43,795 bases of DNA from a virus. The translations under genes and the position numbers were made by a program. The stretch spans positions 1 through 43,795 of the IMG/VR virus record IMGVR_UViG_3300025018_000036; one strand, 5' to 3'. Numbering within the stretch: the first letter of the stretch is position 1; every line of letters begins with the position of its first letter. Of this stretch, positions 4,269-43,795 are shown one piece after another. The notes beneath the pieces are model-generated. The model was not told the DNA's origin, ran no database searches, and worked only from the letters and a program-made list of their open reading frames with translations.

Positions 4269-4564
4269 AGTGCGAATGCTGCGGTGCCCCTGCCAAAGCC
4301 ACCCGCACCACCCACAACGCGTCAGGCACCGTTACCCGAAAATACCTGTGCCAGAACGGGCACACCTTCCACACCATAGAACGCACGTACAACCCCAAGA
4401 ACACCGATAATGGGGCTTTCAAAGGAGCAACCAATGGACCTCTACCTTCTGACAGACGACACCCGCACCTTACCGGAGATGCACCACTTGGGGACAACCC
4501 ATGTGATCCCAGTGGAGGGGAACAACTGGTACGCAGCACGGGCGGAAGCCTTCCGACAGGCTGA
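4265..4564 (+). CDS. Zinc-ribbon protein, Ogr/Delta-like or NrdR-N-terminal-like (possible transcription factor)
   Basis: MKCECCG...x22...RKYLCQNGHTFHTIE resembles the Ogr/Delta C-x2-C...C-x3-4-C/H finger (RYHQCQN..C..TF.T.E). ATGA overlap with the SNF2 stop. The last 131 nt overlap the next gene. Confidence 0.55.
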   Translation: MKCECCGAPAKATRTTHNASGTVTRKYLCQNGHTFHTIERTYNPKNTDNGAFKGATNGPLPSDRRHPHLTGDAPLGDNPCDPSGGEQLVRSTGGSLPTG

Positions 4565-5009
4565 AGCAGGGGGTGACCGTCGGGTTGCCGTAGTGGCGGG
4601 CAGCGTGTCTATCCTGCGTTGTGTGACAGGCGACAAGGTACGCCCAGCAAACCCCAACGGGTATCACGGACTGTGGCTGTACATGGCCCGCCTTGCTGCC
4701 AGCTTTGGTCACGTGTACGTGGCCCCGAGCCGTTGGGCTGGGCAGTTACCACAGTCCGGGGCGGTACTCTCCCCGACGATACCACTGGTATCGGTGTATC
4801 AGGTGAAGGCACTGCAACAGGTGCGCAAGTCTTGGGGCGACGTCGGGCTGGGTCTTGCCCTGTGCGCAGCCGGGTATCACAGCTACACGGTCGGGGACTA
4901 CTTCTACCAAGTGGAAGGCGACCCCCGCAAGAAGCTGTTGGACGATGCTGGTTCTGCGGACCAGTGGCTGAGCGCATACGTGGCGGCTGTGAACACCCTG
5001 CTGGAGTGA
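4434..5009 (+). CDS. Hypothetical protein (191 aa)
   Basis: ATG 4434 follows AAAGGAG (4421..4427). The long ORF has codon usage like its neighbours. No recognisable domain. Confidence 0.55.
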   Translation: MDLYLLTDDTRTLPEMHHLGTTHVIPVEGNNWYAARAEAFRQAEAGGDRRVAVVAGSVSILRCVTGDKVRPANPNGYHGLWLYMARLAASFGHVYVAPSRWAGQLPQSGAVLSPTIPLVSVYQVKALQQVRKSWGDVGLGLALCAAGYHSYTVGDYFYQVEGDPRKKLLDDAGSADQWLSAYVAAVNTLLE

Positions 5010-5013
5010 CCTC

Positions 5014-5355
5014 ATGGACAAACCTATTCCAATGATCCTGTACTGCCCCAACTGCGGTGAGCAGCACGTTGACGCACCTGACACGAACCCGTGCCGTCGG
5101 TCATGTCGGTACGCGGTGGACGTGTGCATGCCTGAGGCAACGTGTGCGGGTGCGTGCCAGTACATGCAAGAAGGGTCACCTAGATGGACAAACCCCCCGC
5201 ACCGTTCGCACAAGTGCGCGACCTGTGGCTGCATTTGGCGTCCGGCTGACGTACCCACTACGGGCGTCGCAGATATCCAGACGTCGGGCAAGTCTGACAC
5301 GTGGCCCGTGTACCCTCAAGAGATTTCAGCCGCACCGGCTGTTCACAAACCATGA
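5014..5355 (+). CDS. Cys/His-rich zinc-ribbon protein (113 aa)
   Basis: Carries CPNCG...C..SC...C..C...C and PPHRSHKCATCGCIWRP. ATG 5014 follows CTGGAG. Confidence 0.6.
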   Translation: MDKPIPMILYCPNCGEQHVDAPDTNPCRRSCRYAVDVCMPEATCAGACQYMQEGSPRWTNPPHRSHKCATCGCIWRPADVPTTGVADIQTSGKSDTWPVYPQEISAAPAVHKP

Positions 5356-5939
5356 GCCATATCCTTGTCTACGTGCACGGCACCAACGGCAGCGGAAAGT
5401 CCACCCTCGCCCGTGGGGTGCTGGCTGCGGCTGGGGGCGTCGCAGAGTACGTGCCCGTGAAGTCGGGAAAACAGGGCAAGGCTGGCTGGACGGACACGCC
5501 CCGAGGGGTAGCTCTCCTCGGCTCCTACCATCGGGCCTGCGGGGGCGTGGATGGCTTTAGCCCGTACGCCCACGTACACGAGGTGATGCAGGGCCACGCC
5601 GAGTACGAGGATACCCGCGTGTTCGCTGAGGGCCTGATGACACCGGGGGTGGACACCTGCACCAAGTTCGCCGGGTACTTTGAGCGCACCGTGTTCATCG
5701 CGCTGTCCACGCCGATTGAGCAGTGCATCGCCAACGTACGCAGCCGCCGGAAACGGGTGGGCAACACCAAGCCATACACCCCGGAGAAGCTGATCTCCAA
5801 ACATGCCTCGGCCCTGCGCTGGGCTGACCGGCTGGCTGCGGCTGGCCTTGAGACGTACAAGATGCCGTACCGCGAGGCATACCATTTTTCCTTGGAGTTG
5901 CTGGGCCTCCCTCTGCCCAGTGTTGATGAACTACTGTGA
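5352..5939 (+). CDS. P-loop kinase (nucleotide or 5-hmdU-DNA kinase candidate)
   Basis: Walker A is VHGTNGSGKST at the N-terminus. Size (~195 aa) is typical of dNMP/polynucleotide-kinase-like P-loop proteins. ATGA overlap with the preceding gene. Confidence 0.65.
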   Translation: MSHILVYVHGTNGSGKSTLARGVLAAAGGVAEYVPVKSGKQGKAGWTDTPRGVALLGSYHRACGGVDGFSPYAHVHEVMQGHAEYEDTRVFAEGLMTPGVDTCTKFAGYFERTVFIALSTPIEQCIANVRSRRKRVGNTKPYTPEKLISKHASALRWADRLAAAGLETYKMPYREAYHFSLELLGLPLPSVDELL

Positions 5940-5950
5940 AAGAAACCACC

Positions 5951-7078
5951 ATGAAAGACGCGTTTGATTCCGTCCGTGTTGCCACGGGATACGGTGTGAC
6001 TGTTGCCAACGTGAACGAGGCCTTGCCGTTGGGCTTGCAGCTTGTGAAGGATGTGGGCGTGCCCTTTGTGTCACGGGGTATCCCCACGCTGGAAGTACCC
6101 GGACCCGTGTCCACCATCTATCACCGCCCGTGGGAGCGTGTGCTGTTCGACCCCGTGCGTGACGCTAACCCATTCTTCCACCTGATGGAAAGCCTGTGGA
6201 TACTGGGTGGCAGCAACGAGGTTGAATTGCCAAGCCACTTCCTAGGCAACATCACCGGCTTCAGTGACAACGGCAAGACATTCCACGGTGCGTACGGCTA
6301 CCGGCTGCGTAGTCAGGGCTTCGGCGACCAGTTGACCATCACCGCCCAGATGCTGCGCGAACGCCCCGACACGCGACAGGCAGTGATGGCTATCTGGAAT
6401 CCAGCACTGGACATGGACACCCGCAGCAAGGACATCCCCTGCAACGACATGATCATGTTTGGCATTCGTGAAGGCAAGCTGAACATGACCGTGTGCAACC
6501 GCAGCAACGATGTGATCTGGGGTGCGTACGGTGCCAACGCAGTCCAGTTCAGCATGATCCACGAGTGGATGGCCTCTGCGGCTGGGGTCACGATGGGGTA
6601 CTACGTGCAACAGTCCAACAGCTATCACGTGTATCCGTCCAACCCGTTCTGGCAGGCGTTTCTGGATGGCGAGCATGCACCGGGCCATGTGCACAACCCG
6701 TACATATCTCACCACTACCCGCTGACCGTGCCGTTGGTGGGGCCACACGACACGCCCGAGGCCTTCCTCGAGGACTGTGAGGGCTTGTGTGAGCAGGCGC
6801 ACAAGGGCACCATCGGGCGCACCAGTGGGAATTCCGTGCGATGGCGAACCCAGTACTTCCGTCAAGTGGTGGAACCCATGTTGCAGGCGTACAACCTGTA
6901 CAAGAAGGGTCTGGCAACGACCGCCCTGTTCCGCCTGCAAGACGTTATCGCAACGGACTGGCGTATGGCCTGCATGCAGTGGGTGCAGCGTCGCATAGAC
7001 AAGGCTGTGGTCAAGGCTGACGCGGCTGGTGCTGTGGCACTGGCGAAGGTGCAACACGCTGGAGACAACCTGAAATGA
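5951..7078 (+). CDS. Thymidylate synthase superfamily enzyme (divergent ThyA; candidate dUMP hydroxymethylase)
   Basis: Aligns by eye to E. coli ThyA: ESLWILGGSNE / ELLWFLQGDTN, GAYGYRLR / PVYGKQWR, DTRQAVMAIWNP / DSRRIIVSAWN, IPCN / APCH (catalytic Cys), NRSNDVIWG..GAN / QRSCDVFLG.PFN. Start is ATG 5951. A GTG at 5936 (GTGA overlap) is an alternative start. Confidence 0.8.
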   Translation: MKDAFDSVRVATGYGVTVANVNEALPLGLQLVKDVGVPFVSRGIPTLEVPGPVSTIYHRPWERVLFDPVRDANPFFHLMESLWILGGSNEVELPSHFLGNITGFSDNGKTFHGAYGYRLRSQGFGDQLTITAQMLRERPDTRQAVMAIWNPALDMDTRSKDIPCNDMIMFGIREGKLNMTVCNRSNDVIWGAYGANAVQFSMIHEWMASAAGVTMGYYVQQSNSYHVYPSNPFWQAFLDGEHAPGHVHNPYISHHYPLTVPLVGPHDTPEAFLEDCEGLCEQAHKGTIGRTSGNSVRWRTQYFRQVVEPMLQAYNLYKKGLATTALFRLQDVIATDWRMACMQWVQRRIDKAVVKADAAGAVALAKVQHAGDNLK

Positions 7079-7632
7079 CCCCCATTGTTGAGAACACCTT
7101 GTACCGTGACGCGGCTGACGTTGCCCGGTATCACACCAAGCGCACCATCCGTCAGCAGACTGTGGGGCAGCACAGCTTTAACATGCTAATGCTCGTGCAG
7201 CAAGTGATCCCCGACTGTCGGAAGGAAGTGTTGCTGGCGATCATGCACCACGACCTCCCCGAGCTCAAGACCGGCGACATACCGGGGCCGATCAAGCGTG
7301 TGCATCCCAGCCTCGGCCCGTTGCTGGACCAGATCGAGGAGGGTTTGTACCCCTTGTTCAAACCCTTCGGCCTGCGTGCCGACGAGGAGAAGCTGATCAA
7401 GTGGGCAGACCGGATGGAAGGGTGTCTGTGGTGTATGGAAGAAGTGCGCATGGGGAACACCTTCTGCAAGAACACTGCCGAGAAGTACATGACGTGGATA
7501 CTGGAGTCCGCTGTCACCGGTGAACTGTACGGGGGCCTGACAGCCACCCACGCATTCACTCACGACGTGATCACGTACATGCGATCACACAATATGCGTG
7601 CAACCGCACGCCCACAACACGAAAGGGACTGA
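7075..7632 (+). CDS. HD-domain phosphohydrolase, YfbR-like 5'-deoxynucleotidase
   Basis: HSFNMLMLV...IMHHDLPELKTGDIPGPIK matches the H...HD...D metal-binding pattern of YfbR-type dNMP nucleotidases. ATGA overlap with the upstream gene. Confidence 0.75.
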   Translation: MTPIVENTLYRDAADVARYHTKRTIRQQTVGQHSFNMLMLVQQVIPDCRKEVLLAIMHHDLPELKTGDIPGPIKRVHPSLGPLLDQIEEGLYPLFKPFGLRADEEKLIKWADRMEGCLWCMEEVRMGNTFCKNTAEKYMTWILESAVTGELYGGLTATHAFTHDVITYMRSHNMRATARPQHERD

Positions 7633-7633
7633 C

Positions 7634-8128
7634 ATGAGCGCGAACGAAACACAGGTCGGGGGCGACCACTACAAACGAGCCGGAGACATGCAGCACTGGG
7701 ACATGGCTGCGCACTATCAGCTCGGGTACTTCGAGGGGCAGGCGTCCAAGTACCTGACCCGGCACCGCAAGAAGCACGGGCTGACAGACATGCGGAAAGG
7801 TCTGCACATGCTGGAGAAGCTGTACGAGGTGAAGTGCGCGTGGTGCCGTGATGGTGGTGTCCCGTGGCTCATCGATAGCGACTCCACCGCCACTCGCCAT
7901 ATCGCCGGACGGCAGTGGGGCGGGTACACCTGGACCCTGTACCAAAAGGCCAACGACCTTACAGAAGACGAAGTGAACCTTGTCCGGGCTATCGCTGAGT
8001 GGAAGACGATGCCAGAGCTACTGCGCATCATCGAACGGTTCCGTGTGCTGATGTACACCACGTACCCGGCACCAGACGCCGAGGAACCCGGACCGGGATA
8101 CGTCAATCAGGACGGGGGTGCAGCATGA
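7634..8128 (+). CDS. DUF3310 (SaV-like) family protein
   Basis: GGDHYK...QHWDM...LGYFEGQASKYLTRHRKK is the characteristic DUF3310 N-terminal signature. Confidence 0.7.
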   Translation: MSANETQVGGDHYKRAGDMQHWDMAAHYQLGYFEGQASKYLTRHRKKHGLTDMRKGLHMLEKLYEVKCAWCRDGGVPWLIDSDSTATRHIAGRQWGGYTWTLYQKANDLTEDEVNLVRAIAEWKTMPELLRIIERFRVLMYTTYPAPDAEEPGPGYVNQDGGAA

Positions 8129-8988
8129 CCGCCCGTGTGGGTGCTTTCGTGGCCTTCTGTGTGGCACGGCATCAGGTGTACGTCAACCGTGTGGTGCGGG
8201 GTCTGTCCAAGCCCTGGACCGGGGACCCCATCTTGCAGGCGTATCGCTTCTGCAACGTATACCGCGAACTGGACACGGTGACCCAGTGGATACGGCAGAA
8301 GTGGTCACCCAAGCTGGGTGGACATCCGGACGCATGGTTCTGGATGGTGGTGGCACGGCTGGTAAATCACCCGACCACCCTCGCGGCTGCGGGGTTCGAC
8401 CTGCGCCGTGAGTGGGAGGGGTACAACGACACCAACTTCTTCACCATCATGGAAACCCGCAAGGCCCAAGGTGTGAAGGCGTTTGGCAGTGCGTACATCG
8501 TGTCCACCAACGGGCACACCATGGAGAAGCACCTGTACCTGGACGACCATGTGCTGACCCCCCTGTGGCGGAACAAGCACGCATACCGGCCAACACCCAC
8601 GGACACCCTCGCCAGCTTCCACAAGAGGCTAATCACCGCGAATGGTCTGGGGTCCTTCATGGCTGCGCAAGTGGTGGCAGACACCAAGAACACCCACGGT
8701 GACCACCTGCACACGGCTGAGGACTGGTGGACGTGGGCAGCACCGGGTCCGGGCAGTATGCGGGGCCTGTCCCGTGTGTTGTTCCAGGACAAGGACCACA
8801 GGTTCCGGGACGCGCAGTTTCTCGTAGACCTCAATGAACTGCAGGATTACGTGAACGCAGCCTTCGTGAAGAGGGGGTGGCAGAAACTGTGCGCACAGGA
8901 CGTCCAGAACTGCCTGTGCGAGTTCGACAAGTACGAGCGTGTACGGCTGGGGCAGGGCAAGCCTCGCCAACGGTACGCGGGGGTCTAG
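8125..8988 (+). CDS. Putative DNA base hypermodification protein (5-hmdU DNA kinase helical-domain / aGPT-pyrophosphorylase-like family)
   Basis: The N-terminal signature PWTGDPILQAYRFCNVYRELDTVTQW resembles the conserved W-x-D-P-I-x4-[KR]-F-[TC]-N-V-[FY]-R-x-L-D block I associate with this all-alpha family. ATGA overlap with DUF3310. The family call is from memory only. Confidence 0.5.
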   Translation: MTARVGAFVAFCVARHQVYVNRVVRGLSKPWTGDPILQAYRFCNVYRELDTVTQWIRQKWSPKLGGHPDAWFWMVVARLVNHPTTLAAAGFDLRREWEGYNDTNFFTIMETRKAQGVKAFGSAYIVSTNGHTMEKHLYLDDHVLTPLWRNKHAYRPTPTDTLASFHKRLITANGLGSFMAAQVVADTKNTHGDHLHTAEDWWTWAAPGPGSMRGLSRVLFQDKDHRFRDAQFLVDLNELQDYVNAAFVKRGWQKLCAQDVQNCLCEFDKYERVRLGQGKPRQRYAGV

Positions 8989-8996
8989 TCGTGGGG

Positions 8997-9329
8997 ATGG
9001 TGCACTACGTCCGGCCGGGGAGCAAGCTGCGCATTCTGGCCGGGGACACACCAACGTGGATCACCAACAACCACAGGGCGTCGTACATCAGACAGGTGTG
9101 CTTGTCCGCCCCCTTGTGGGTACGGTTCCACGACTTCGCCATGCTGCGGCTGGAGTGCCTGTGGGCCACAGTCATGCACGGCGAGCTCTACGTGTTGGAC
9201 CACATCGTGCCCCTCAACCACCCGCGTGTCTGTGGCCTCACCGTGCCGTGGAACCTGCGGGTGGTGCACTGGCGTGTGAATGCCACCAAGGGGAACGACT
9301 GGTGTCCGGAGCAGGGGGAACTCTGGTGA
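8997..9329 (+). CDS. HNH endonuclease
   Basis: LDHIVPLNH...NLRVVHWRVNATKGN is an H-N-H core. Start is ATG 8997. GTG 8991 is an alternative start. Confidence 0.75.
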   Translation: MVHYVRPGSKLRILAGDTPTWITNNHRASYIRQVCLSAPLWVRFHDFAMLRLECLWATVMHGELYVLDHIVPLNHPRVCGLTVPWNLRVVHWRVNATKGNDWCPEQGELW

Positions 9330-9631
9330 GCAGCCCCGGGAACCCCGCGTACAAGGACACATGGCTGCGATGCAACGGATGCAGGACGCGTCGCAAGACG
9401 GTGCAGCTACTCCTCCGGCACGTACAAGCGCATCCTGAGTGCCTGCCGTGCTCCTGCAGTGGGTACGAGTTCATCCACCGGAAGGGGTCAGGGGCATGCG
9501 TACACCGGGCCGACCAGATGCAGGCGTGGGTCCTGCTGGCCCGCAGGCGCGGCGAGGATGAGCTCACAGCCATGGCCGAATATGCGTGGGATTACCCCGG
9601 AATACCATCCCCCGGCGACCCGCCTTTCTAG
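9326..9631 (+). CDS. Cys/His-rich small protein (101 aa)
   Basis: GTG 9326 overlaps the HNH stop (GTGA) and follows GGGGGAA. It carries CNGC...H..H.EC..CSC...H. It corresponds to the 3' third of track ORF 8939..9631. Confidence 0.45.
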   Translation: MSSPGNPAYKDTWLRCNGCRTRRKTVQLLLRHVQAHPECLPCSCSGYEFIHRKGSGACVHRADQMQAWVLLARRRGEDELTAMAEYAWDYPGIPSPGDPPF

Positions 9632-11202: not shown

Positions 11203-11727
11203 CTAGCCCTTCACAGGCATGGGGTTAGCTGGGTCAGCTTGGGCCTTACCCCGGAACCAGCTTGCCACCCCGAGGATACCCCCAAACATCATCCACACCG
11301 TTTCGGGCACTGTGGGCACGGGTATCTTCAACAACGGCAGAACAAAATAACAGCCAAAGGCCATGACCCCGGTCATGAAGCCGATAAAAGGCCTCCACGA
11401 GTACGTGGGCCAGTGCTCCGAAACCGTTTCGGCCTGCATGGTGGCATTCACAGCGACGATGACCTGCGTATCCGCAGCCAGCCGGTTCGCTTCGGCCTGC
11501 ACCAGCAGGGTCTGGAGCTCCACCTGCCGTTCCTTTTCAATTTGCTTCAGCTTCACAGCCGCGTCAGGATTGGACGCCAGTGCCACAGCCACTTCATCCG
11601 GGGTGTTGCCCGTACCCAGAACGCTGGAGATGATGCTGCCGATGGCACCACCCGCAGGCCCGCCCAGTAAACCACCCAGCACGGGGGCACTGGACCCCAC
11701 TACAGAAGCGATGTCTTTCCAGTTCAT
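11203..11727 (-). CDS. Holin of the 3-TM (GTA-release) type
   Basis: N-terminal glycine-zipper (GGLLGGPAGGAIGSIISSVLG), a central coiled region and C-terminal hydrophobic helices. ATGA overlap with the endolysin stop. Confidence 0.6.
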   Translation of the reverse strand: MNWKDIASVVGSSAPVLGGLLGGPAGGAIGSIISSVLGTGNTPDEVAVALASNPDAAVKLKQIEKERQVELQTLLVQAEANRLAADTQVIVAVNATMQAETVSEHWPTYSWRPFIGFMTGVMAFGCYFVLPLLKIPVPTVPETVWMMFGGILGVASWFRGKAQADPANPMPVKG

Positions 11728-12272
11728 GACAACCCCCCGACTCGGTTAGCCTGCCAGCCGTACTGGAACTCTTCTTGGGATACGTTGCCCTCAGCGAGTT
11801 CAATGTACCGGACGGACTGCTGGGCATTGAGCATGCGCAACAGCACCGTCTCACCGCCCACACCCCGCACCGACAGGAAGGCCCGCAAGGCGGCGATGGT
11901 GATCTTGCCAATGACCCCATCCGCTGCGATGTTGGGGTACAGCTTGTCGTCGCGGTTGAGCACGTTGAGTGCACGCTGCAGGAACCGCCCTGCCACCTGT
12001 GGCCCCATGTTGACGCCCGTGTCGAGTAGCTCTTCTGCGATGAGGGGGCTCTGCAGGGCAATCTCATTCAGGTGTGGAGCGAACCAGTACCGTTCCATGT
12101 AGATGCGCACAGCCACGGAACGAGGCATGTTGATCATGGGACCGGAGTAGCCAAAGGCACGCGCAACGGCAATCGTCACGCCCCACATGGTTTCACCGCC
12201 ATGATCGTGCGGGTTGTTGCTGTACCGCCCCTCCCGGCCAATCAGGGCGTCCACGGTTTCATCCAACGTCAT
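11724..12272 (-). CDS. Endolysin, glycoside hydrolase family 108 with PG_binding_3-like C-terminus
   Basis: REGRYSNNPHDHGGETMWGVT matches the GH108 EGGY.N.P.D.GG.T..GIT signature. The C-terminal ADGVIGKITIAALRAF resembles the PG-binding repeat. Confidence 0.85.
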   Translation of the reverse strand: MTLDETVDALIGREGRYSNNPHDHGGETMWGVTIAVARAFGYSGPMINMPRSVAVRIYMERYWFAPHLNEIALQSPLIAEELLDTGVNMGPQVAGRFLQRALNVLNRDDKLYPNIAADGVIGKITIAALRAFLSVRGVGGETVLLRMLNAQQSVRYIELAEGNVSQEEFQYGWQANRVGGLS

Positions 12273-12511
12273 AGGTCATCCTTCCGTCTGAGCAGGTGCT
12301 CTTGCTTGCGCTTCACTCGGTCACGCCACCAACGGTCGCGGATCGTGAAGAATATTTGGGCCACTGTGAACACCAGCGTCGCGATTAGCACGAGGTCGTT
12401 GAGCGATACGGACCCGTACACCGTGCCGATCCACGCCACGAAGACCTTCAGAAAAGTGTGGTTCTCAGTGTTGTCCACGGATGAATCCTTTGTTGTACGC
12501 CATCCCACCAT
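12269..12511 (-). CDS. Class II-like holin candidate (80 aa, two TM helices, charged C-terminus)
   Basis: ATG 12511 follows GAGGAG. The TM segments are FLKVFVAWIGTVYGSV and LVLIATLVFTVAQIFFTI, followed by RDRWWRDRVKRKQEHLLRRKDDL. ATGA overlap with the endolysin start. Confidence 0.55.
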   Translation of the reverse strand: MVGWRTTKDSSVDNTENHTFLKVFVAWIGTVYGSVSLNDLVLIATLVFTVAQIFFTIRDRWWRDRVKRKQEHLLRRKDDL

Positions 12512-12523
12512 TTTACGCACTCC

Positions 12524-12919
12524 TCAGAACGTGTACTCCAGAGACAGGTGTACGACGTGCGCCCTCATGATCCGGACCTTGGGTATGTACGACAGCCGGA
12601 CGCCCGTGTGAGGGCTGACCTGCCACAGCACACTCGGGGACACCAACGGCAGCACAGGAGCAGCAGAGTATCCGGTGATGCCGCCCAGCAGCACGGACGG
12701 CTGGAGGGTGGGGTTGTTGCCCAGCTTGAACTCGTACGCCAGATATGTGCTCTGCCGGTTGTGGGAGTTGCGGAAGGTGCCCAGCACTACGTCGTTCGTG
12801 AACTTCACGTAGATACCGGGGTTCACGCCGTTCAGCTTCTCCGAGTTGGGCTCTGGCGCAAAGTGTGCGCTCCCAACGTGTAGGCCAACAGCAGCGATGC
12901 AGCAAGTGATCAAGTCCAT
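12524..12919 (-). CDS. Small putative outer-membrane beta-barrel-like protein (131 aa)
   Basis: ATG 12919 follows TGGAG. The C-terminus HLSLEYTF shows the alternating hydrophobic, terminal-Phe beta-signal typical of OMPs. The N-terminus is hydrophobic but lacks a classical positively charged n-region. Confidence 0.4.
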   Translation of the reverse strand: MDLITCCIAAVGLHVGSAHFAPEPNSEKLNGVNPGIYVKFTNDVVLGTFRNSHNRQSTYLAYEFKLGNNPTLQPSVLLGGITGYSAAPVLPLVSPSVLWQVSPHTGVRLSYIPKVRIMRAHVVHLSLEYTF

Positions 12920-12961
12920 GGTGTACTCCAAAAGATAAAAGAAGGGAGCCTATTACACCAT

Positions 12962-13954
12962 CTAACTGACCGCCCCGTACGCACGGGAACTGCTGGCAGT
13001 ACCGCCCGCCCACACGAGGGAGTGACCGTTGAGCGCAACGGAATTACCTCCCGCCCCTCCTGCCATCACGCCACCGATGTACACGGGGGTCGTGTAGACC
13101 GTGGCGTTGTCACCCACGACTTCAGTGGAATACCCTGCCCCACCACCCGCCCACGGAGGGGAGGATGTCGAACTGTTCCCCCGGACACCTTGCCCACCCG
13201 CAGCACCCCAGCCACCACCCCCGCCACCGGATCCTGGAAAGTACGTGTCTCCATAGAAGAAGGCAATCGCAGCCCCGCCCCCTCCTCCACCACCAGCACC
13301 AGCCGCACCCGGTTGAGCAGACGGACTGAAGGAACCAGTGGCGTATCCTCGCGTACCACTGGCCCCGCCGAACAGGCGACCACCCCCGCCCCCTCCAGCA
13401 ACGCCGTATCCGGAGCTCATGACGTTACCGCCTGCGCCACCTGTGTTCCCAACGAGGCCGGGTGCACCCCCTGAGGCGAACAGGGAGTTCCATAGGACCT
13501 CACCACCACGACCCCCTCCCGCACCACCCCCGCCACCCGCACAGTACGACGCAGCCCCACCCCCGTACCCACCTCCGCCACCACCCCCGAGGACGTACCC
13601 GTTGCGGGTGTCTACGGTCGCGGGGTGGGCTAGGTGAATGGCTGGTCCACCGGGTTGCCCGGCTTTGTAGTTGGCAGGGTAGTTGGAACCGCCCTCACCA
13701 CCCTTGCCCATGATGAACCCGTTGTTGATTACAACGACACGGTCATTTGCGTGGAAGGCCAGCACATTCAACCCGCCGACAGCAGTGTCATCGCTGTACA
13801 GGTATATACCAGAGGCGATGGTAAGTGTGATGTCGGAGTTGCCAGACTGATACCCCACCATCGTGGAGGGGTCGAGTTCGTACTCCACCTGATTGGACGT
13901 CAGCAGGATGTTGATCTGGTTCCGGCCCCCACCGGATCGGGCAGCGAACGTCAT
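12962..13954 (-). CDS. Glycine-rich tail fibre/tip protein
   Basis: About 95 aa of N-terminal domain are followed by long poly-Gly tracts (GGGGGGYGGG, GGGGGAGGGRGG, GGGGGGG, GGGGGGWG). Start is ATG 13954 (ATGA overlap with the upstream stop). ATG 13969 is an alternative start. Confidence 0.6.
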   Translation of the reverse strand: MTFAARSGGGRNQINILLTSNQVEYELDPSTMVGYQSGNSDITLTIASGIYLYSDDTAVGGLNVLAFHANDRVVVINNGFIMGKGGEGGSNYPANYKAGQPGGPAIHLAHPATVDTRNGYVLGGGGGGGYGGGAASYCAGGGGGAGGGRGGEVLWNSLFASGGAPGLVGNTGGAGGNVMSSGYGVAGGGGGGRLFGGASGTRGYATGSFSPSAQPGAAGAGGGGGGGAAIAFFYGDTYFPGSGGGGGGWGAAGGQGVRGNSSTSSPPWAGGGAGYSTEVVGDNATVYTTPVYIGGVMAGGAGGNSVALNGHSLVWAGGTASSSRAYGAVS

Positions 13955-14499
13955 GGCAGTTGGCTCCATGCACCTTCCCAACGCGTCGCGGCTGCGGAGT
14001 ACGTCAGGAAGAGCCAGCTCACCTTCAATGCCGTTGGGTTGATGGCCCCCGACACCACCGCACCCGCAGGCACAGCCACGGTACGACCCCCGGCTGCGTC
14101 CTGCACGAACCGGATGTTGATGGATTGCCCCCCATGCGGGTTGTTGATAGTGATACTGGACACGTTTCCCGTAAGCGCACCCGGCTCAAACACGTTGGAC
14201 GCATCGGCATCAAACGTGGGCGTGGCCGAATGGGCTGGTGTCAGGGACGGTGTGAATGCACCCCCCGTAATGGTGGCAAGCCCAGTAAAGGAAGGCGACG
14301 CGGCTGCGGCTGCACCAATGGCAGTCCGTCCGGCTGCGGCATCTACTGCGGCCATCACAGCCGCACCGACTGCGGTTACGTGCGCAATCATCGCGTTCAG
14401 CTTGGTGATTGCGTCCTGTATATCCGGACGAGCATTCGCCAGCAGGTCAGTCGGTGCGTCTACGTTGGATGTGACGACTGCTACGGTAGGCCATGTCAT
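13951..14499 (-). CDS. Tail fibre protein (182 aa)
   Basis: Lies directly downstream of the J-like protein with an ATGA overlap. The N-terminal LANARPDIQDAITKLNAMIAH is a helix-type fibre attachment segment. Confidence 0.5.
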   Translation of the reverse strand: MTWPTVAVVTSNVDAPTDLLANARPDIQDAITKLNAMIAHVTAVGAAVMAAVDAAAGRTAIGAAAAASPSFTGLATITGGAFTPSLTPAHSATPTFDADASNVFEPGALTGNVSSITINNPHGGQSINIRFVQDAAGGRTVAVPAGAVVSGAINPTALKVSWLFLTYSAAATRWEGAWSQLP

Positions 14500-17273
14500 A
14501 GTGGGTATCCTTCAATGATGAAATCTACAGAGGTCGGGTCGGCCAGAGTGCCGTTCAGTTTGAACTGCCACCGTGGGCCATAGGTCAGGACATTGTCAAT
14601 CCGTTGGGCTGTCCACGCCCCGGAGGAGCTGTCTTGAACGATGACATTGGTGTTGCGGATGACAGCGTATGCGTTCGCCAGTGGTATCCGGATGTCGCCC
14701 GTGCCAATACGGTACGACCCCGTCAGGGTGGATATGTCCAGGTCGTTGATGTACTCGGTCTGAATAGCAGCGTCGACAGCGTACGACCACGAGCGCACGA
14801 AAGGCACTGGCTTCGGCACCGTAGCAGTCACCGTGATGCGGAGCTTGAAGTACCGTGAGTTGAATGGCGCACTTGGGTCACCCCATGCGCTCCACGACAC
14901 GCCATCACCGGACAGCGCAAGCTCCTGCACGATGATGCCATCCGCGTCCACAGTGCTGTTGATGCGGGCCGACACCGTGGCCCCTAGATCACGGGCTGGC
15001 GTCTCGTAGTAGATGGGTGACGTTGGTGCACTGTTCCACCGTCCGTGGTTGCCCCAGTCGTTAGGAAGGGACGTCCAGTCAGCCGTGTCGTCAGCCTCCA
15101 GCGCGGAACCTGCAACGTGGCACCCTGTCTTTGTGCCCGTCCAGCCTTCCGCATGCTCATAGAACTCATCGAACACGCTGCCGAGCCGCCTGTTGGGCAG
15201 TGTCACCTGGATATACAACGGTGTCACGGAGGCGTTGAACACCCTGTCGATCGCACACAGGGCGAAGGTGTAGTCGCCAGCCAACAGCGAATTTGATTCC
15301 ACTGGGGATTGGCTGTAGAAGCCATTGTCCGGCAGGTTGTCTAGCCGTTCCATGGTGTCCCATGCAGGCTCCACCAGCAGGCCCGGAAGATATCGTATCT
15401 GCGCCCCGAGGAAGTCCACCGGGCGGGGGGTGGATATATACGCGAATTCGAATTGACGAGTGCCGTCAGGCTGTATTGTGATGTTGAAGAAGTCGAAGTT
15501 GGGTGGGGGTACGTCCAGCATAGCCCCGGTGATCGTGTACGTGTACTCCACGACCTCGTCCAGTGTCTGCTCGCCGCCTCCGTACACGTTGAAGCTGGTG
15601 AACTTGAAGCTGAGGGGTTTGCCCACGTAGCTGATGTCCAGTGCACCGCTCTTCGCGATGGCTTCGTCCACCCGTACCATGGCAGAGTTCAGCGGGTGAG
15701 CTTGCTGTACGGTGTCAAACCCAGCACGCACCAGCCCACTCAACGTATACGCGTTGGAACCTATGAGTGCTGCCCCCTCGTGCGCCATGTACTCGCCTCC
15801 GGGGGTGGCACCTTCCAGCCATACGAGAGTGTTCAACGCGGCTGCATCCGCAGCACTGCCCGCAGTAAGGGGGCCACTGGACGCCTTCAGCTGGATGTTG
15901 ACGGACGTGTCAGAGTCGGCCATGTTCGCGGACACGTACCCGTATCGTGAACTACCCACCAGCCGGTCGACTTCTTGGTAGTTGGCCTCGCCATCCAAAG
16001 CCACCCACACGCGGCATCCTCCCCAGTTAAGCCCAGAACCACCCACAGCGATGTAGACCTCCAGCCCTGCCACGGTACGCTCCACCGGAGCCTCAAAGAA
16101 GACTGGGGTCTCTACAGAGCCTGGAGGGGTGTTGTAATTGTGCGAGAAGCCTTCGCCTGCCTCCGCCCCGTACGCTGGGGACGTAGCCATGCCAATCGGC
16201 GCGTCCTCACACTCGTACTCGTAGTCGCCATCGTTCTGCTCGCTGATGGTGTTGATGCGGACAGGCGTACCGTCCAGGCCCTTGGGGGCGTACGTGAGGG
16301 ACAACAGGTCCAACGGCTCCGCCATCACAAACGACCACGGGAGCGTGAATTTGTACGTGTTGCGTACGGACATCTGACGGTTCAGCAACAGCGTCGCCAG
16401 TGTGCGGGCCACAGCCGTATCACAAATGGCATGCGCCTCGAACGTTGCCATGGTGCGCAACCCCCGGTAATCGATGTCGGCCGAGTCCTTCGCCTCCACG
16501 ATATCCAGGTTATAGTCGTTGGTCCTGTTGCTGTACTCCACCCGAACGTGGTTGTACGCGTCTTCGTTGGACTTGCGGCTGACCTTCACCCCGTCCTCGT
16601 CCGGGCCACTGACAACGAAGTGGTCTTCCGTGAGCTCGTAGACTGGGACGTTGTTGGGCGTGTATGTTGCCCCGTTGGCTGTCACAGTCTTGTCGCCCAG
16701 AGGCACGAACTTCAGGGTGGCTTGTGACCACACGCAATCTGAATTGCACAGGTCCAGCAAGTACCGCAGCCATTCCGCTCCAGGCTTCTGTACAGACAGC
16801 ACCGGCGAGTACGACAGGCCCTGTGCCCGTGCATAGTTGGCGATGTCACTGACCTCCCCCGTGCGCGAGGCCGGGAAGTCCATGCCGTACCGGCTGTTGA
16901 AGAGCAAGTCCTGTATCACTGCTCCAGGGCTGGCGTCGGGGGTGTAGTCCTGCTCCCACGGGGTAGACACTTCAAACGTGTGGTTCACCACTTCTGCCGT
17001 ACTGCCGAGGTCGTACGCGGGGGCGAACACGTACGCGAACCCAGAGTAACCCAGTGCCTGCGCTGGAAACGCGCCTGCCAGATAACCCCATGTCGCCTGA
17101 CCGAGTGTCCCGTTTGTCAGGTTGAGGCCTGCCTCATTGAGGGCACTCACGGCGGAAGCAGTGTTCACGCCTTGGTATGTCACGGTGACGGGTGTGCCCA
17201 CCAGTGCAGCGGAGAACGTGTAGTTCCCCACACCATCCACGGTGTAGTCCACGCCCTCTGTCAAAGTTGTCAT
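14496..17273 (-). CDS. Host-specificity / central tail fibre protein (lambda J / GTA g15-like), large fragment
   Basis: 925 aa, located after the NlpC/P60 tail gene. The region FNSRYGMDFP...YARAQGLSYSPVL...LRYLLD is typical of J/g15-type proteins. Confidence 0.75.
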   Translation of the reverse strand: MTTLTEGVDYTVDGVGNYTFSAALVGTPVTVTYQGVNTASAVSALNEAGLNLTNGTLGQATWGYLAGAFPAQALGYSGFAYVFAPAYDLGSTAEVVNHTFEVSTPWEQDYTPDASPGAVIQDLLFNSRYGMDFPASRTGEVSDIANYARAQGLSYSPVLSVQKPGAEWLRYLLDLCNSDCVWSQATLKFVPLGDKTVTANGATYTPNNVPVYELTEDHFVVSGPDEDGVKVSRKSNEDAYNHVRVEYSNRTNDYNLDIVEAKDSADIDYRGLRTMATFEAHAICDTAVARTLATLLLNRQMSVRNTYKFTLPWSFVMAEPLDLLSLTYAPKGLDGTPVRINTISEQNDGDYEYECEDAPIGMATSPAYGAEAGEGFSHNYNTPPGSVETPVFFEAPVERTVAGLEVYIAVGGSGLNWGGCRVWVALDGEANYQEVDRLVGSSRYGYVSANMADSDTSVNIQLKASSGPLTAGSAADAAALNTLVWLEGATPGGEYMAHEGAALIGSNAYTLSGLVRAGFDTVQQAHPLNSAMVRVDEAIAKSGALDISYVGKPLSFKFTSFNVYGGGEQTLDEVVEYTYTITGAMLDVPPPNFDFFNITIQPDGTRQFEFAYISTPRPVDFLGAQIRYLPGLLVEPAWDTMERLDNLPDNGFYSQSPVESNSLLAGDYTFALCAIDRVFNASVTPLYIQVTLPNRRLGSVFDEFYEHAEGWTGTKTGCHVAGSALEADDTADWTSLPNDWGNHGRWNSAPTSPIYYETPARDLGATVSARINSTVDADGIIVQELALSGDGVSWSAWGDPSAPFNSRYFKLRITVTATVPKPVPFVRSWSYAVDAAIQTEYINDLDISTLTGSYRIGTGDIRIPLANAYAVIRNTNVIVQDSSSGAWTAQRIDNVLTYGPRWQFKLNGTLADPTSVDFIIEGYPL

Positions 17274-17761
17274 CAGTTGTTCCCCCAGTTGCCGTCGTAT
17301 ATTCCCTGCGTTGGGACTGCGTTGTTTGTCACACTCACATTCGCTGTGAACCCACTGCCGTCAGCAACGATGGCGGGTACGTTGATCGGTGCAGTGCTGC
17401 CGACGGTGAACGTGGTGGTGCGAGTCACCGGAGTGCTGTTTGTTGGCACGCCCACGAACTTGATCTTGCCCTTCCACACGGACGTGATCCGGCCAACGTA
17501 TCCCTCACCCAGAATCATGATCAGGGCTGCGGTATACGTGAAGTCCGTCTGCGACTGCGTAACCTTGCCTCCGCCCTTGCCACCACTGGTCTGAGTGCTG
17601 GTGTGAGGTACAGCCGCGAAGGCACCGTACCAGCTAAGGTTTCCGCTGACCCTGTTCCGCCCGTACATCACCTGGACGACTGACCCGTACACGGCTGTCT
17701 GGATGCGCAGATTGCCCGCCATGGGCTGGATCGTGCTGATCGTTGTGTTCTTGCCCGCCAT
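17273..17761 (-). CDS. N-terminal J/g15-like module encoded as a separate ORF (162 aa)
   Basis: LRIQTAVYGSVVQVMYGRNRVSGNLSWYG...SGGKGGGK...FTYTAALIMILGEGYVGRITSVWKGK matches the conserved N-terminus of GTA g15 / J-like proteins. Its stop overlaps the next ATG (ATGA at 17271..17275). Confidence 0.6.
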   Translation of the reverse strand: MAGKNTTISTIQPMAGNLRIQTAVYGSVVQVMYGRNRVSGNLSWYGAFAAVPHTSTQTSGGKGGGKVTQSQTDFTYTAALIMILGEGYVGRITSVWKGKIKFVGVPTNSTPVTRTTTFTVGSTAPINVPAIVADGSGFTANVSVTNNAVPTQGIYDGNWGNN

Positions 17762-17763
17762 GA

Positions 17764-18198
17764 CTAGTCCTCGATGCCGTTGATTGAGTAGAACACGTGA
17801 GGCCGCGACACAAGCTGCGACTCGCGCATGCTGCCCAGCACCACAGCACCCGCGTCGCGGTATGCGTGGATAATCGTACCCTGCTCATCCAACACGATGG
17901 CCCCGTGGCTGTACGTGCGGCCGAACCGCCACAGCACGACGTCGCCCGCCTTGGGGGTGTCTACCCGCGTGCCGTACTGTTCCACCCATGCCAGATACTT
18001 CTCCTCGCCCCTGTGCAGGTGCCAGTCCGTCGCGTACGGGCGGGGGTCCAGGGTGGCGGGCACGAGGCCCACCCCAGCGTAAACCCGGACCAGCAACATC
18101 GCGCAGTCGGTCCCCACGCCCTTTATGTCCCCGTGGTGGTGGTAGGGTGTCCGCAGCCACCCCATCGCCTCTGTGCGCACTTGCTGTCGCGTGGTCAT
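17764..18198 (-). CDS. NlpC/P60 family tail-associated cell-wall peptidase (GTA g14-like)
   Basis: The catalytic Cys context is GVGTDCAMLLVRVY and the His context is YSHGAIVLD. The position matches the GTA-like tail module. Confidence 0.8.
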   Translation of the reverse strand: MTTRQQVRTEAMGWLRTPYHHHGDIKGVGTDCAMLLVRVYAGVGLVPATLDPRPYATDWHLHRGEEKYLAWVEQYGTRVDTPKAGDVVLWRFGRTYSHGAIVLDEQGTIIHAYRDAGAVVLGSMRESQLVSRPHVFYSINGIED

Positions 18199-19058
18199 GT
18201 GACTGTCTCCGGTACGGGCACGTACGGCATGCCCCTGAATCTGGCCTTGTTTCCAAACGTGCCGTCACACGTGGCCTGTGACTTGTCGCATCCAGGCACT
18301 AGCGTGAAGGTGTCCGAAGCCGCCACAGCGAACGGAAACGCCCGAGGGAAGGACAACGTGGCCCCGGAGTGCTGCAGGACGGTGCGCTGGATGCCTGCAT
18401 TGGCCCCACTGGTGAACCGCAGCACACCAAGGCTGAAGTACCCGGAGGTATACCCGCCGGACACGGTGTTGGTGAAGGTGGTGGGGTCAACGACAGTGCT
18501 GATAGCTCCGGAGACGGTGCGTGCTGCCTTGCTGACCCCGCAGTTGGAGTCGTACAGGTTGTTCAGGCATCCAGGCTGGTACAGCGAACGAGGCACCTGT
18601 TGGTTGAGCTGGGTAAGCTGTGACTTCACGGTCAGCTCCGCCCCCATGTCCGTCGGGTCTACGTCTGACACCGCCCCCATGAACCACACGATGGAGCCCT
18701 GCACCACGTTGGAGTCGTTGAGGTAGATGCGCTCCAGTTGCACGGCAGCCGAATCGAACCCGCCTTTCGTGGCGAACACAGGCAGACGCTGCCCATCCAC
18801 GAGCACGAGTGGCCCGTGCAAGTCCACCTGGAGCTGAGCGACTTCGATGCCCCGTGTCCAGCGCACCCGGTCACGAGTGATGATGGGTCCGGGTGTGAAC
18901 ACGCGGGCGGGTGGCCCCAGCGTGGTCAGGGGTGCGTCGGCGTCTGTCCACTGCACTTGCGTCTGGGACTGCAGGAGGATAGTCCACAGGTCAAAGGACA
19001 CCCCCTGCTTCCGGTTGTCCAGGAAGGTTACGAGTGATGGTGCGACGTTGGTTTTCAT
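18195..19058 (-). CDS. DUF2163 / phage BR0599-family distal tail protein (GTA g13-like)
   Basis: The C-terminal PGCDKSQATCDGTFGNKARFRGMPYVP is the conserved BR0599 C-terminal box. Start is ATG 19058 (ATGA overlap). Confidence 0.7.
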   Translation of the reverse strand: MKTNVAPSLVTFLDNRKQGVSFDLWTILLQSQTQVQWTDADAPLTTLGPPARVFTPGPIITRDRVRWTRGIEVAQLQVDLHGPLVLVDGQRLPVFATKGGFDSAAVQLERIYLNDSNVVQGSIVWFMGAVSDVDPTDMGAELTVKSQLTQLNQQVPRSLYQPGCLNNLYDSNCGVSKAARTVSGAISTVVDPTTFTNTVSGGYTSGYFSLGVLRFTSGANAGIQRTVLQHSGATLSFPRAFPFAVAASDTFTLVPGCDKSQATCDGTFGNKARFRGMPYVPVPETVT

Positions 19059-19657
19059 GGCCGGAATGTCCTGAACTCGAGGTCGGTCTTCCACTTACCC
19101 TTCATCATGGCGTCCGTGGGTAGCTCGTCGTTGATGAACCGACACCGTTTGTAGTACGTGCCCGTCCACGTAATGGCGTGACCGTTTGGTGGTGGGGTCA
19201 CGAAGGATATCAACCGGAGTTCGGCATCGAACACATACTGCGTCGTAATCGTCTGCAGCACCGCGTTCACATACACCTGCGCTGTCCCAGCGTTCACCGC
19301 ACCCACAGGCTCCGCGAAACCCCCATACGAGGAGAGGATTTCAAACTGGTCAGTGGTGCCATCACCAGTGCCCATATTCTGCAGCGTGGCGATATTGTCA
19401 AACTGGTCCAGGTACAGCCAGTCGTCATACTTGCCATTCCGGGCATTGAAGAACGCCAGTATCTGCTGGAACTCAGTCAGTGACGCGGCATCCCGTAGGA
19501 CTTCATACGGTAGACGGTACTTCCAGATCGGGTACAGCCTGCGTCGGAGCGTGTACTGCCTGCCCGATACCGCGTTGGACTCTTTCGTGGCCCACATGGG
19601 CGTCTTCTTGATGCCCCACGAAAGGCCCGGAAACGAAGGAAGAATGTTGTTGCTCAT
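19055..19657 (-). CDS. DUF2460-like distal tail protein (GTA g12-like)
   Basis: The N-terminus is MSNNILPSFPGLSWGIKKTPMWATK...SGRQY. Start is ATG 19657 (ATGA overlap with the tape-measure stop). Confidence 0.65.
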   Translation of the reverse strand: MSNNILPSFPGLSWGIKKTPMWATKESNAVSGRQYTLRRRLYPIWKYRLPYEVLRDAASLTEFQQILAFFNARNGKYDDWLYLDQFDNIATLQNMGTGDGTTDQFEILSSYGGFAEPVGAVNAGTAQVYVNAVLQTITTQYVFDAELRLISFVTPPPNGHAITWTGTYYKRCRFINDELPTDAMMKGKWKTDLEFRTFRP

Positions 19658-39198: not shown

Positions 39199-39230
39199 TA
39201 CACTAGACCACGCGCCACCATGCGTCTACC

Positions 39231-39244
39231 GCCCCTTCGGGGGC
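39231..39244 (+). other. GC stem with UUCG tetraloop, second copy of the 17-nt element
   Basis: CCGCCCCTTCGGGGGCA at 39229..39245. Confidence 0.7.
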
Positions 39245-39270
39245 ATTCTGTTATCACCAAGGAAACCACC

Positions 39271-43655: not shown

Positions 43656-43697
43656 GTGTGGCCCCATGCCGTGAGGTATCGGGGCCACACTTGTCTT
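43656..43697 (+). terminator. Terminator-like hairpin spanning the start of the terminal duplication
   Basis: GTGTGGCCCC (43656..43665) pairs with GGGGCCACAC (43681..43690) across a 15-nt loop, followed by TTGTCTT. Confidence 0.5.
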
Positions 43698-43795
43698 AGG
43701 AGAATCACCGTGGCATCAATCAACGTAATGGTCAAACGGATATCGGGGTTGCTGGACAGCGACCTATCTGAGTGGGAACAGGACTTCGTGGAGAG
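43669..43795. repeat. Right copy of the exact 127-bp terminal duplication
   Basis: Identical to 1..127. Contains the RBS and the first 86 nt of the gene annotated at 42..227. Confidence 0.95.

Follow-up and report, generated by a model that had tools for sequence, protein, structure and literature searches.

The five-gene block at 5352–8988

The stretch of DNA analysed here, which we refer to as the window, is the whole of IMG/VR virus record IMGVR_UViG_3300025018_000036 (43,795 nt). Between positions 5352 and 8988, five consecutive open reading frames (ORFs) on the + strand form a block that resembles a compact module for thymidine replacement or hypermodification in phage DNA. In order, these genes encode a P-loop kinase with the Walker A motif GTNGSGKST (5352–5939); a ThyA-superfamily enzyme, predicted to be a dUMP hydroxymethylase, that ends at 7078 and starts either with an ATG at 5951 or with a GTG at 5936; a YfbR-like HD 5ʹ-deoxynucleotidase (7075–7632); a DUF3310 protein that is a candidate nucleotide kinase of the gp1.7 type (7634–8128); and an all-alpha protein of the HMUDK_hel family, also labelled “aGPT-Pplase clade 1”, with similarity to helix-hairpin-helix (HhH) glycosylases (8125–8988). 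ATGA overlaps join the kinase gene to the ORF upstream of it (at 5352), the ThyA homologue to the HD gene (at 7075) and the DUF3310 gene to the HMUDK_hel gene (at 8125). The kinase/ThyA junction is a GTGA overlap at 5936, and a single nucleotide at 7633 separates the HD and DUF3310 genes. The GC content of third codon positions (GC3) is 0.76–0.81 in all five genes, which is the coding signature of this 60 % GC genome, and no promoter-like or terminator-like sites were seen on the + strand inside the block. A preliminary description, made without database searches, had proposed five mostly ATGA-coupled genes at this position, had assigned the five proteins to the families named above, and had read the block as a thymidine replacement/hypermodification pathway. 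All of the ORFs, their coordinates and their junctions were confirmed. Each family assignment is upheld by profile matches, including PHROGs matches for all five genes, and by orthology to gp49–gp53 of phage PaMx11. The orthology of the whole block to PaMx11 gp49–gp53 also supports the reading of the block as a modification pathway.

Phages that hypermodify thymidine thereby protect their DNA against many restriction enzymes, and such pathways are also a source of DNA-modifying enzymes for use in biotechnology. In the clusters of phages PaMx11 and M6, the chemistry of the kinase and of the transferase has been established, and the transferase family, amino acid:DNA transferase (AADT), is the only family shown to displace the phosphate (PMC8989533). 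All of the pathways reconstituted to date run from a kinase to an AADT and then to tailoring enzymes. Nearly all thymidine-hypermodifying phages also carry HMUDK_hel/Pplase1, a second glycosylase-like family. The definitions of these families reportedly originate with Iyer et al. 2013.

The kinase scores 22.5 bits against Pfam HMUDK_HMUD1, under the cut-off of 27. PaMx11 gp49, an accepted member, scores lower still (18.1 bits), and gp15 of Rhodoferax phage P26218 reaches 24.3 bits; hence, the model under-detects this kinase subclade. The kinase matches phrog_800 (E 1.2e-20), and is 27 % identical to PaMx11 gp49 (E 4e-16), 24 % identical to the assayed kinase M6 gp54 (E 3e-8) and 59 % identical to P26218 gp15, whose gene adjoins an AADT gene. 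In an alignment of 10 sequences that took in M6 gp54, PaMx11 gp49 and the N-terminal part of SP10 gp186, residues G10, G13, G15, K16, G57, Y59, G65, D67, E93, G94, P121, C125 and R132 are invariant. From its homology to assayed kinases, we infer that the protein is a kinase acting on 5-hydroxymethyldeoxyuridine (5-hmdU) in DNA. The label “terminase small subunit”, attached to the kinase through phrog_800 and RefSeq, was considered and rejected as a misnomer, since PaMx11 gp49 and M6 gp54 bear the same label. The experimentally defined 5-hmdU DNA kinases mislabelled in this way (loci are given by L numbers) are L003:7396–7965 (PaMx11 gp49), L094:4420–4983 (M6 gp54) and L008:5038–6951 (SP10 gp186); this misannotation is systematic in RefSeq and PHROGs, and it hides such clusters.

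The ThyA homologue matches Pfam Thymidylat_synt with 56.7 bits (cut-off 24.3; E 2.7e-15) and phrog_5131 with an E of 2.9e-108. It aligns over its full length with PaMx11 gp51 (38 % identity, E 7e-71) and is 32 % identical to the dUMP hydroxymethylase of phage SH-Ab 15599, which has been used functionally (PMC13458397). Among solved structures the best match is the CMP 5-hydroxymethylase MilA (71 bits), and all thymidylate synthases score 46 bits or less. The catalytic cysteine is retained, the Cys of the motif DIPCN aligning with that of MilA, while the specificity position reads GAN where MilA has SD, such that an Asn (uracil) stands in place of an Asp (cytosine). All NCBIfam equivalog cut-offs for thymidylate synthase were failed (the best scores being 80.1 bits versus 174.6, and 49.5 versus 327). 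By sequence, then, this protein is more like a dUMP hydroxymethylase than a thymidylate synthase.

The HD protein exceeds the Pfam cut-off for YfbR-like (PF12917; 54.6 bits versus 25.9, E 1.5e-14), and falls well under the NCBIfam equivalog for E. coli-type YfbR (33.5, cut-off 122). Hence, it is a member of the YfbR-like family and not an E. coli-type equivalog. It also matches phrog_6047 (E 5.3e-41) and PaMx11 gp52 (27 % identity, E 5e-14). Its proposed substrate is dTMP or another competing nucleotide. The DUF3310 protein scores 17.1 bits against Pfam DUF3310 (cut-off 24, E 0.0059), and matches phrog_5839 (E 3.8e-28), phrog_236, “nucleotide kinase” (E 1.1e-12), and PaMx11 gp53 (30 % identity, E 2e-13). 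The nucleotide kinase gp1.7 of T7 has DUF3310 as its conserved domain (Pfam E 4.5e-23), which makes the protein of the window a reasonable candidate for the kinase step from 5-hmdUMP to 5-hmdUDP. A direct BLAST comparison of the two proteins gave no significant alignment, and the link to T7 gp1.7 is by profiles only.

Could these genes simply serve nucleotide metabolism? The block would then consist of a divergent thymidylate synthase, a dNMP kinase, a nucleotidase and two unrelated proteins, with no DNA modification. Public records do label homologues “thymidylate synthase”, “deoxyguanosine kinase” and “terminase small subunit”, and the Pfam scores of the kinase and the DUF3310 protein lie under the curated cut-offs. 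Those sub-threshold scores are nonetheless backed by PHROGs and by orthology to PaMx11 gp49 and gp53. Furthermore, the ThyA homologue is nearer to hydroxymethylases and fails every equivalog cut-off for thymidylate synthase, HMUDK_hel is known only from phages that process 5-hmdU, and the block in its entirety has an orthologous counterpart in phages whose DNA has been chemically proven to be modified. We therefore consider a purely metabolic role to be very improbable.

The HMUDK_hel protein

Profile searches had been proposed in the preliminary description. The product of 8125–8988 matches Pfam HMUDK_hel (PF18723) over profile positions 5–277 of 281, with 150.4 bits against a cut-off of 25 (E 8.7e-44). 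It contains the block PWTGDPILQAYRFCNVYRELD, which the preliminary description had named as a signature of base hypermodification proteins; this N-terminal motif is the best-conserved block of the Pfam family. Identity is 33 % to PaMx11 gp50 (E 3e-37), 35 % to M6 gp55, 30 % to PhiW-14 gp72 and 23 % to the C-terminal domain of SP10 gp186, and homologues also occur in Ackermannviridae. The family is large: 4,431 proteins were found at E <= 1e-3 in a 90 %-clustered collection, and 3,427 clusters in a 50 %-clustered library, nearly all of them standalone proteins of about 280 aa. Ten long homologues were considered for fusions that might give functional clues and were set aside, as they show only AAA_25 or a PolA fragment and are probably read-through gene calls.

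An AlphaFold (AF2) model of the 287-aa protein, built from an alignment of 61 sequences, has a pLDDT of 94.2 and a pTM of 0.92. A Foldseek search of a viral library with this model returned the predicted structures of the PhiRSL1, PhiW-14 and SP10 homologues (TM 0.79–0.87), with Pplase1 proteins next, and an AADT-domain protein matched at E 8e-4 and TM 0.56. A fold search of the PDB was less informative and gave nothing at E <= 1e-3; its weak ranking, which is suggestive, is headed by 8Z2N (the AADT PaMx11 gp46), followed by QNG1, AlkA, OGG and NTHL1, and the folds are of the HhH glycosylase type throughout. Comparison of HMUDK_hel and AADT alignments with hhalign gave an E of 4.5e-4 and a probability of 33 %. 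In this alignment, the HMUDK_hel motif GxGSFMAxQVVAD is paired with fGxWixFKvAD, placing D186 opposite D153 of AADT, and QDxQNCLCEFDKY is paired with QEvETILCKwKSH, so that C265 falls opposite C247. The latter residue touches the flipped nucleoside in the structure of gp46, and the authors of that study liken the mechanism to that of DNMT1 and propose a covalent cysteine intermediate (PMC11472151).

The polar residues R15, R47, D50, R78, N81, D186, D200, E266 and K269 are invariant in the 61 diverse sequences, and Cys265 is near-invariant. So dense a set of invariant polar residues resembles an active site and argues for an enzyme. On the evidence of profile comparison and predicted fold, HMUDK_hel and AADT are remote paralogues, and the HMUDK_hel protein is probably an enzyme acting on a flipped, 5-substituted uracil. 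It is not itself an AADT: it has no match to the ADDT profile and no BLAST similarity to gp46. The preliminary description had considered the core of the pathway to be present. This is true of the hydroxymethylase and the kinase. The fifth protein, by contrast, is HMUDK_hel and not AADT, so the experimentally defined core is incomplete here; of the three components of a pathway of the M6/ViI/PhiW-14 type (hydroxymethylase, 5-HMUDK and AADT), the first two are present and AADT is absent.

An alternative is that HMUDK_hel has a non-catalytic or regulatory role, in which it binds 5-hmdU and flips it so as to provide sequence targeting, to present the substrate or to guard against host glycosylases. 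In that case, the final base would be 5-hmdU with some 5-PmdU, the phosphorylated form, or else an adduct made by the products of the ORFs at 4434–5009 (ORF X) or 9326–9631. In Pfam, HMUDK_hel is described as a helical domain belonging to the kinase, and in SP10 the two are fused; residues common to HMUDK_hel and AADT contact the flipped nucleoside (PMC11472151); and ORF X is conserved beside the kinase. However, the kinase and AADT of M6 work in vitro without HMUDK_hel (PMC8989533), the prevailing architecture is a standalone protein of 280 aa, and the many invariant Asp, Glu, Arg and Lys residues, along with the nearly invariant Cys265, would be more usual in an active site. We regard a purely accessory role as unlikely.

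Absence of AADT in the window and at related loci

The window carries an exact direct terminal overlap of 127 bp (1–127 = 43669–43795), so the assembly closes circularly on a genome of 43,668 bp. The same phage was assembled independently in ENA, JGI and Logan data sets, and the ENA contig is a circular permutation with an overlap of 141 bp; the source samples are JGI 3300008255, ENA ERZ27293386 and SRR6053076. We examined the whole contig using precomputed Pfam matches, scans of unassigned ORFs, a six-frame scan with hidden Markov models (HMMs), and tblastn for the transferase family. No AADT (Pfam ADDT, PF18724, formerly aGPT-Pplase2) was found anywhere in the window, the best E of the six-frame scan being 1.2. 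An AADT remnant in the window was likewise ruled out, as neither tblastn with four AADTs nor the six-frame scan gave anything. Profiles recognised no pyridoxal phosphate (PLP)-dependent enzyme, radical-SAM protein, FAD oxidoreductase, acetyltransferase, glycosyltransferase or amidoligase in the whole contig, and no dCMP deaminase or dUTPase. The earlier statement that the genome encodes no PLP-dependent, radical-SAM, glycosyltransferase or amidoligase tailoring enzyme thus holds, in a complete genome, as far as profiles reach.

This layout is not peculiar to the window. Three contigs (P0002, P0004 and P0010) encode HMUDK_hel proteins 59–69 % identical to that of the window, and none has an AADT. 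They share the gene order PolA, SNF2 helicase, ORF X, kinase, ThyA homologue, HD, DUF3310 and HMUDK_hel, such that the AADT-less layout is found in at least three related phage contigs of ~41–44 kb. Retention of the kinase and HMUDK_hel without AADT, despite divergence to 59–69 % identity, indicates that the arrangement is maintained and is not a fresh loss. The preliminary description had raised the possibility of a new variant of the pathway, should unassigned neighbours make an adduct. The AADT-less layout is real, but the window is not alone in having it: related contigs show it too, and SP10 is a precedent. Another IMG/VR relative, L014, has the order kinase-ThyA-HD-DUF3310-HMUDK_hel-AADT. 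Orthologous kinases are thus accompanied by AADT only (P26218 and Manatee Spring phage MW202557), by HMUDK_hel only (the window and L095–L097) or by both (L014). That such close relatives have one, the other or both suggests that each of the two proteins can partner the kinase.

To place these genomes in a wider context, we fetched 80 IMG/VR loci that encode HMUDK_hel; the tally comprises 84 loci including the window. Neighbours were classified with purpose-built HMMs and with Pfam scans of the commonest neighbour clusters, in flanks of up to 10 kb, some of them cut by contig ends, and the sample consists of the loci most similar to the query. A ThyA homologue is present in about 70 of the 84 loci, usually directly adjacent to HMUDK_hel, and HD and DUF3310 genes are present in most. 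A 5-HMUDK-type kinase lies near HMUDK_hel in one third of loci (28/84). AADT was found in 8/84, always together with the kinase; the combination of kinase and HMUDK_hel without AADT accounts for 20/84. Kinases do not appear to be hidden among the remaining loci, since a short ORF with an N-terminal Walker A motif was found in only 5 of 44 kinase-less hydroxymethylase loci, some of these being spurious.

Other partners recur. A TET-associated glycosyltransferase (Pfam TAGT) lies near HMUDK_hel in 25/84 loci, a radical-SAM/SPASM protein in 13/84, and a 318-aa protein without a Pfam or PHROG match in 12/84; in about 10/84, HMUDK_hel stands alone on very long contigs (100–460 kb). The TAGT gene (Pfam E 3.7e-27; e.g. 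L053:9217–10011, L028, L031 and L076) also lies near the ThyA homologue, and is usually directly upstream of HMUDK_hel, with the kinase absent, which suggests that these loci belong to phages that glycosylate 5-hmdU to yield base-J-like DNA. The radical-SAM/SPASM and 318-aa partners are also often directly upstream (e.g. L048:8051–9025 and L027:9036–9992). Association with alternative modifiers (kinase in 28 loci, TAGT in 25, radical SAM in 13) fits a role for HMUDK_hel in handling a shared substrate, and so favours the accessory function discussed above.

Two of the ORFs that flank the block occupy positions at which relatives encode AADT. ORF X (4434–5009, + strand, ~195 aa) is lineage-specific, and lies in a conserved position between the SNF2 helicase and kinase genes. 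Homologues in the same position are L095:6352–6936, L096:6398–6994 and L097:5885–6487, with another in L014; a search of 5.8 billion proteins found only 4 homologues. ORF X has no match in Pfam, PHROGs or NCBIfam, and its AF2 model is unreliable (pLDDT 49). In phage P26218 this slot holds the AADT, and ORF X is a possible additional component of the pathway. The slot after HMUDK_hel is occupied in the window by an HNH-endonuclease-like ORF (8997–9329, + strand; phrog_26577, E 2.1e-18; phrog_338 “HNH endonuclease”, E 2.2e-5), and in L014 by the AADT (5716–6606); a homing endonuclease may have replaced the AADT in this slot. The Cys-rich ORF whose end overlaps the kinase start by ATGA (5014–5355, + strand) has a weak coding signal (GC3 0.64, versus 0.76–0.81 in its neighbours) and a weak match to phrog_14118 (E 8.8e-8); it was called by none of three independent gene callers, and is absent from the relative L096. 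Elsewhere in the genome, a 350-aa ORF (39220–40272, + strand) has weak ParB-like PHROG matches (phrog_2159, E 6.4e-7). ParB-like proteins partner some phage T-dioxygenases; this genome has no TET/JBP gene.

Proposed pathway and comparison with known systems

Our preferred interpretation, to which we assign a probability of about 0.5, is that the cluster is an SP10-type module for thymidine replacement or hypermodification that operates without AADT. Judging from the predicted protein families, the ThyA-like enzyme would convert dUMP to 5-hmdUMP before replication, the HD nucleotidase would remove competing dTMP or dUMP, and the DUF3310 protein, being of the T7 gp1.7 kind, would together with host kinases convert 5-hmdUMP to the triphosphate, which the phage PolA would incorporate instead of T. 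After replication, the P-loop kinase would phosphorylate 5-hmdU in DNA to give 5-PmdU, as suggested by its orthology to assayed kinases. For the last step, we see roughly even odds that HMUDK_hel flips the modified base, that Cys265 attacks C6, and that a nucleophile replaces the (phospho)hydroxyl at the 5-methylene. This proposal draws on the likeness of HMUDK_hel to AADT in both profile and fold, including the pairings D186/D153 and C265/C247. By analogy with SP10, the outcome would be a hypermodified thymidine of some kind that needs no further tailoring. Under this interpretation, the window, its relatives and SP10 would represent a maintained setup in which HMUDK_hel is the sole candidate for the enzyme that follows the kinase.

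Several observations weigh against the SP10-type interpretation. First, an AADT or its equivalent could have been missed: several ORFs in the window lack any family match and could hide an unrelated transferase, and the AADT HMM was built from proteobacterial phages, such that a divergent AADT could escape it. Second, only 28 of the 84 HMUDK_hel loci have the kinase, whereas most have the hydroxymethylase. HMUDK_hel therefore tracks the hydroxymethylase and not the kinase, and its substrate need not be 5-PmdU; with the co-occurrence of the hydroxymethylase so much steadier, the order in which HMUDK_hel acts after the kinase is deduced rather than observed. Third, a literature search for a demonstrated function of HMUDK_hel/Pplase1 found nothing. 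Fourth, HMUDK_hel has been dispensable where hypermodification was reconstituted: M6 gp55 was left out of the in vitro reactions that form N-alpha-GlyT and was not needed (PMC8989533), and the five genes that suffice to install dapT in E. coli do not include the HMUDK_hel of SH-Ab 15599 (PMC13458397). Lastly, another SP10 protein could be the true transferase, for example gp185, the large neighbour of gp186. This protein has been reported as a radical SAM protein (Lee et al. 2018); in our scan gp185 (L008:2307–4997, 896 aa) had no Pfam match at E <= 0.01.

In SH-Ab 15599, HMUDK_hel is the unremarked Orf49 (L093:8961–9926; Pfam E 6e-40), encoded directly upstream of the dUMP hydroxymethylase. 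Canonical thymine occupies about 77 % of the T positions in the DNA of this phage (PMC13458397). An alternative function is that HMUDK_hel turns 5-hmdU or 5-PmdU in DNA into thymine, the phage replicating with 5-hmdU and then maturing its DNA largely to T, with 5-hmdU or 5-PmdU possibly left at some sites. How PhiW-14, SP10, M6 and ViI convert 5-hmdU to T is described as unexplained (PMC5889632, PMC8989533), a literature search for the enzyme responsible found nothing, and all of the T-reverting phages that we checked encode HMUDK_hel: M6, PhiW-14, SP10 and SH-Ab 15599, as well as Ackermannviridae relatives of ViI. Furthermore, tblastn with the HMUDK_hel domain of SP10 gave matches in just 6 Bacillus phage records, which suggests that SPO1-like phages, which keep 5-hmdU, are without HMUDK_hel. 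The dispensability of HMUDK_hel for the hypermodification reactions themselves (PMC8989533, PMC13458397) would also be accounted for, and the hydroxymethylase is its steadiest neighbour. However, forming thymine is a reduction and calls for a hydride donor, and the 287-aa, all-alpha, HhH-like protein shows no domain that would bind a cofactor. A hydroxymethylase, a kinase and HMUDK_hel that together end in plain T look futile, yet the set is conserved; P26218-type phages manage with AADT and without HMUDK_hel; and many loci have no kinase to activate the hydroxyl. On balance, we think thymine formation by HMUDK_hel doubtful. If it were true, this lineage would carry out thymidylate synthesis at the level of DNA, and would be the minimal system in nature for demonstrating such a reaction.

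What is the broader significance of the block? Our survey indicates that, in thousands of uncultured phages, HMUDK_hel is tied to the hydroxymethylase. The small operon of the window offers a compact system in which both the function of HMUDK_hel and the origin of thymine in phages of this kind can be tested.

How does the SP10-type module that we propose compare with systems already described? The most instructive comparison is with PaMx11, which, like M6, has a thymidine-hypermodification cluster (5-AcNmdU and 5-NedU). The PaMx11 cluster comprises gp46 (AADT), gp47 (FAD lyase), gp48 (acetyltransferase), gp49 (kinase), gp50, gp51 (ThyA-like), gp52 (HD) and gp53, with functions taken from PMC8989533. 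The five genes of the window correspond to gp49–gp53 at 27–38 % identity, and in both cases the core adjoins replication genes. The order differs, HMUDK_hel being last in the window and second in PaMx11. Above all, PaMx11 and M6 carry an AADT (gp46 and gp51, respectively) and FAD/acetyltransferase or PLP/radical-SAM tailoring enzymes, all of which the window lacks.

The closest sequenced relatives of the region are P26218 and MW202557, with 68–73 % nucleotide identity over parts of it. Their kinases are 57–59 % identical to that of the window, and the order helicase-...-kinase-ThyA-HD-DUF3310 is common to all. In P26218 and MW202557 an AADT lies upstream of the kinase and HMUDK_hel is absent; the window shows the reverse. 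Their genomes are also smaller (36–39 kb). The record of MW202557 gives it as Podoviridae sp., and P26218 is short-tailed (PMC4657236). The window, in contrast, has phiJL001/gene transfer agent (GTA)-like tail genes. These lie at 11203–21975 on the - strand, where lysis and tail genes with matches to GTA_holin_3TM, GH108, Phage-tail_3/Rcc01698_C, Phage_phiJL001_Gp84_N, BR0599 and DUF2460 resemble those of GTAs and phiJL001-type siphoviruses. A GTA/phiJL001-like tail combined with a replication and modification block closest to that of a short-tailed phage indicates that the genome is a mosaic.

Pelagiphages of the HTVC023P type have “TS + aG/PT-PPlase1” partner genes, TS being thymidylate synthase, at times with a nucleotidase and a glucosyltransferase (PMC9599517). 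Like the window, these phages combine HMUDK_hel/Pplase1 with a ThyA homologue, and often a 5ʹ-deoxynucleotidase, near PolA and without AADT. This ThyA-Pplase1 pairing is also the dominant one among the 84 loci of our survey. The pelagiphages usually have no kinase and often have a glycosyltransferase, whereas the window keeps the kinase and has no glycosyltransferase.

The closest parallel is SP10, whose DNA contains alpha-glutamylthymidine (PMC5889632, PMC8989533). A six-frame HMM scan found no AADT in its 144-kb genome. As in the window, the gp186/gp188 system of SP10 sets a 5-HMUDK kinase and an HMUDK_hel domain near a ThyA-like hydroxymethylase. The two differ in that SP10 joins kinase and HMUDK_hel in one polypeptide of 637 aa (gp186), whereas in the window they are two genes with three others between them. 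SP10 is moreover a herellevirus with a dUTPase and a dCMP deaminase, where the window encodes only the HD nucleotidase, and identity between the two HMUDK_hel sequences is just 23 %. The components, the general pathway and the TS-Pplase1 pairing are already known. By its gene content, the window is unlike every reconstituted pathway in its stable absence of AADT and of all tailoring enzymes with the kinase kept and, by analogy, it would be in effect a split SP10-type system.

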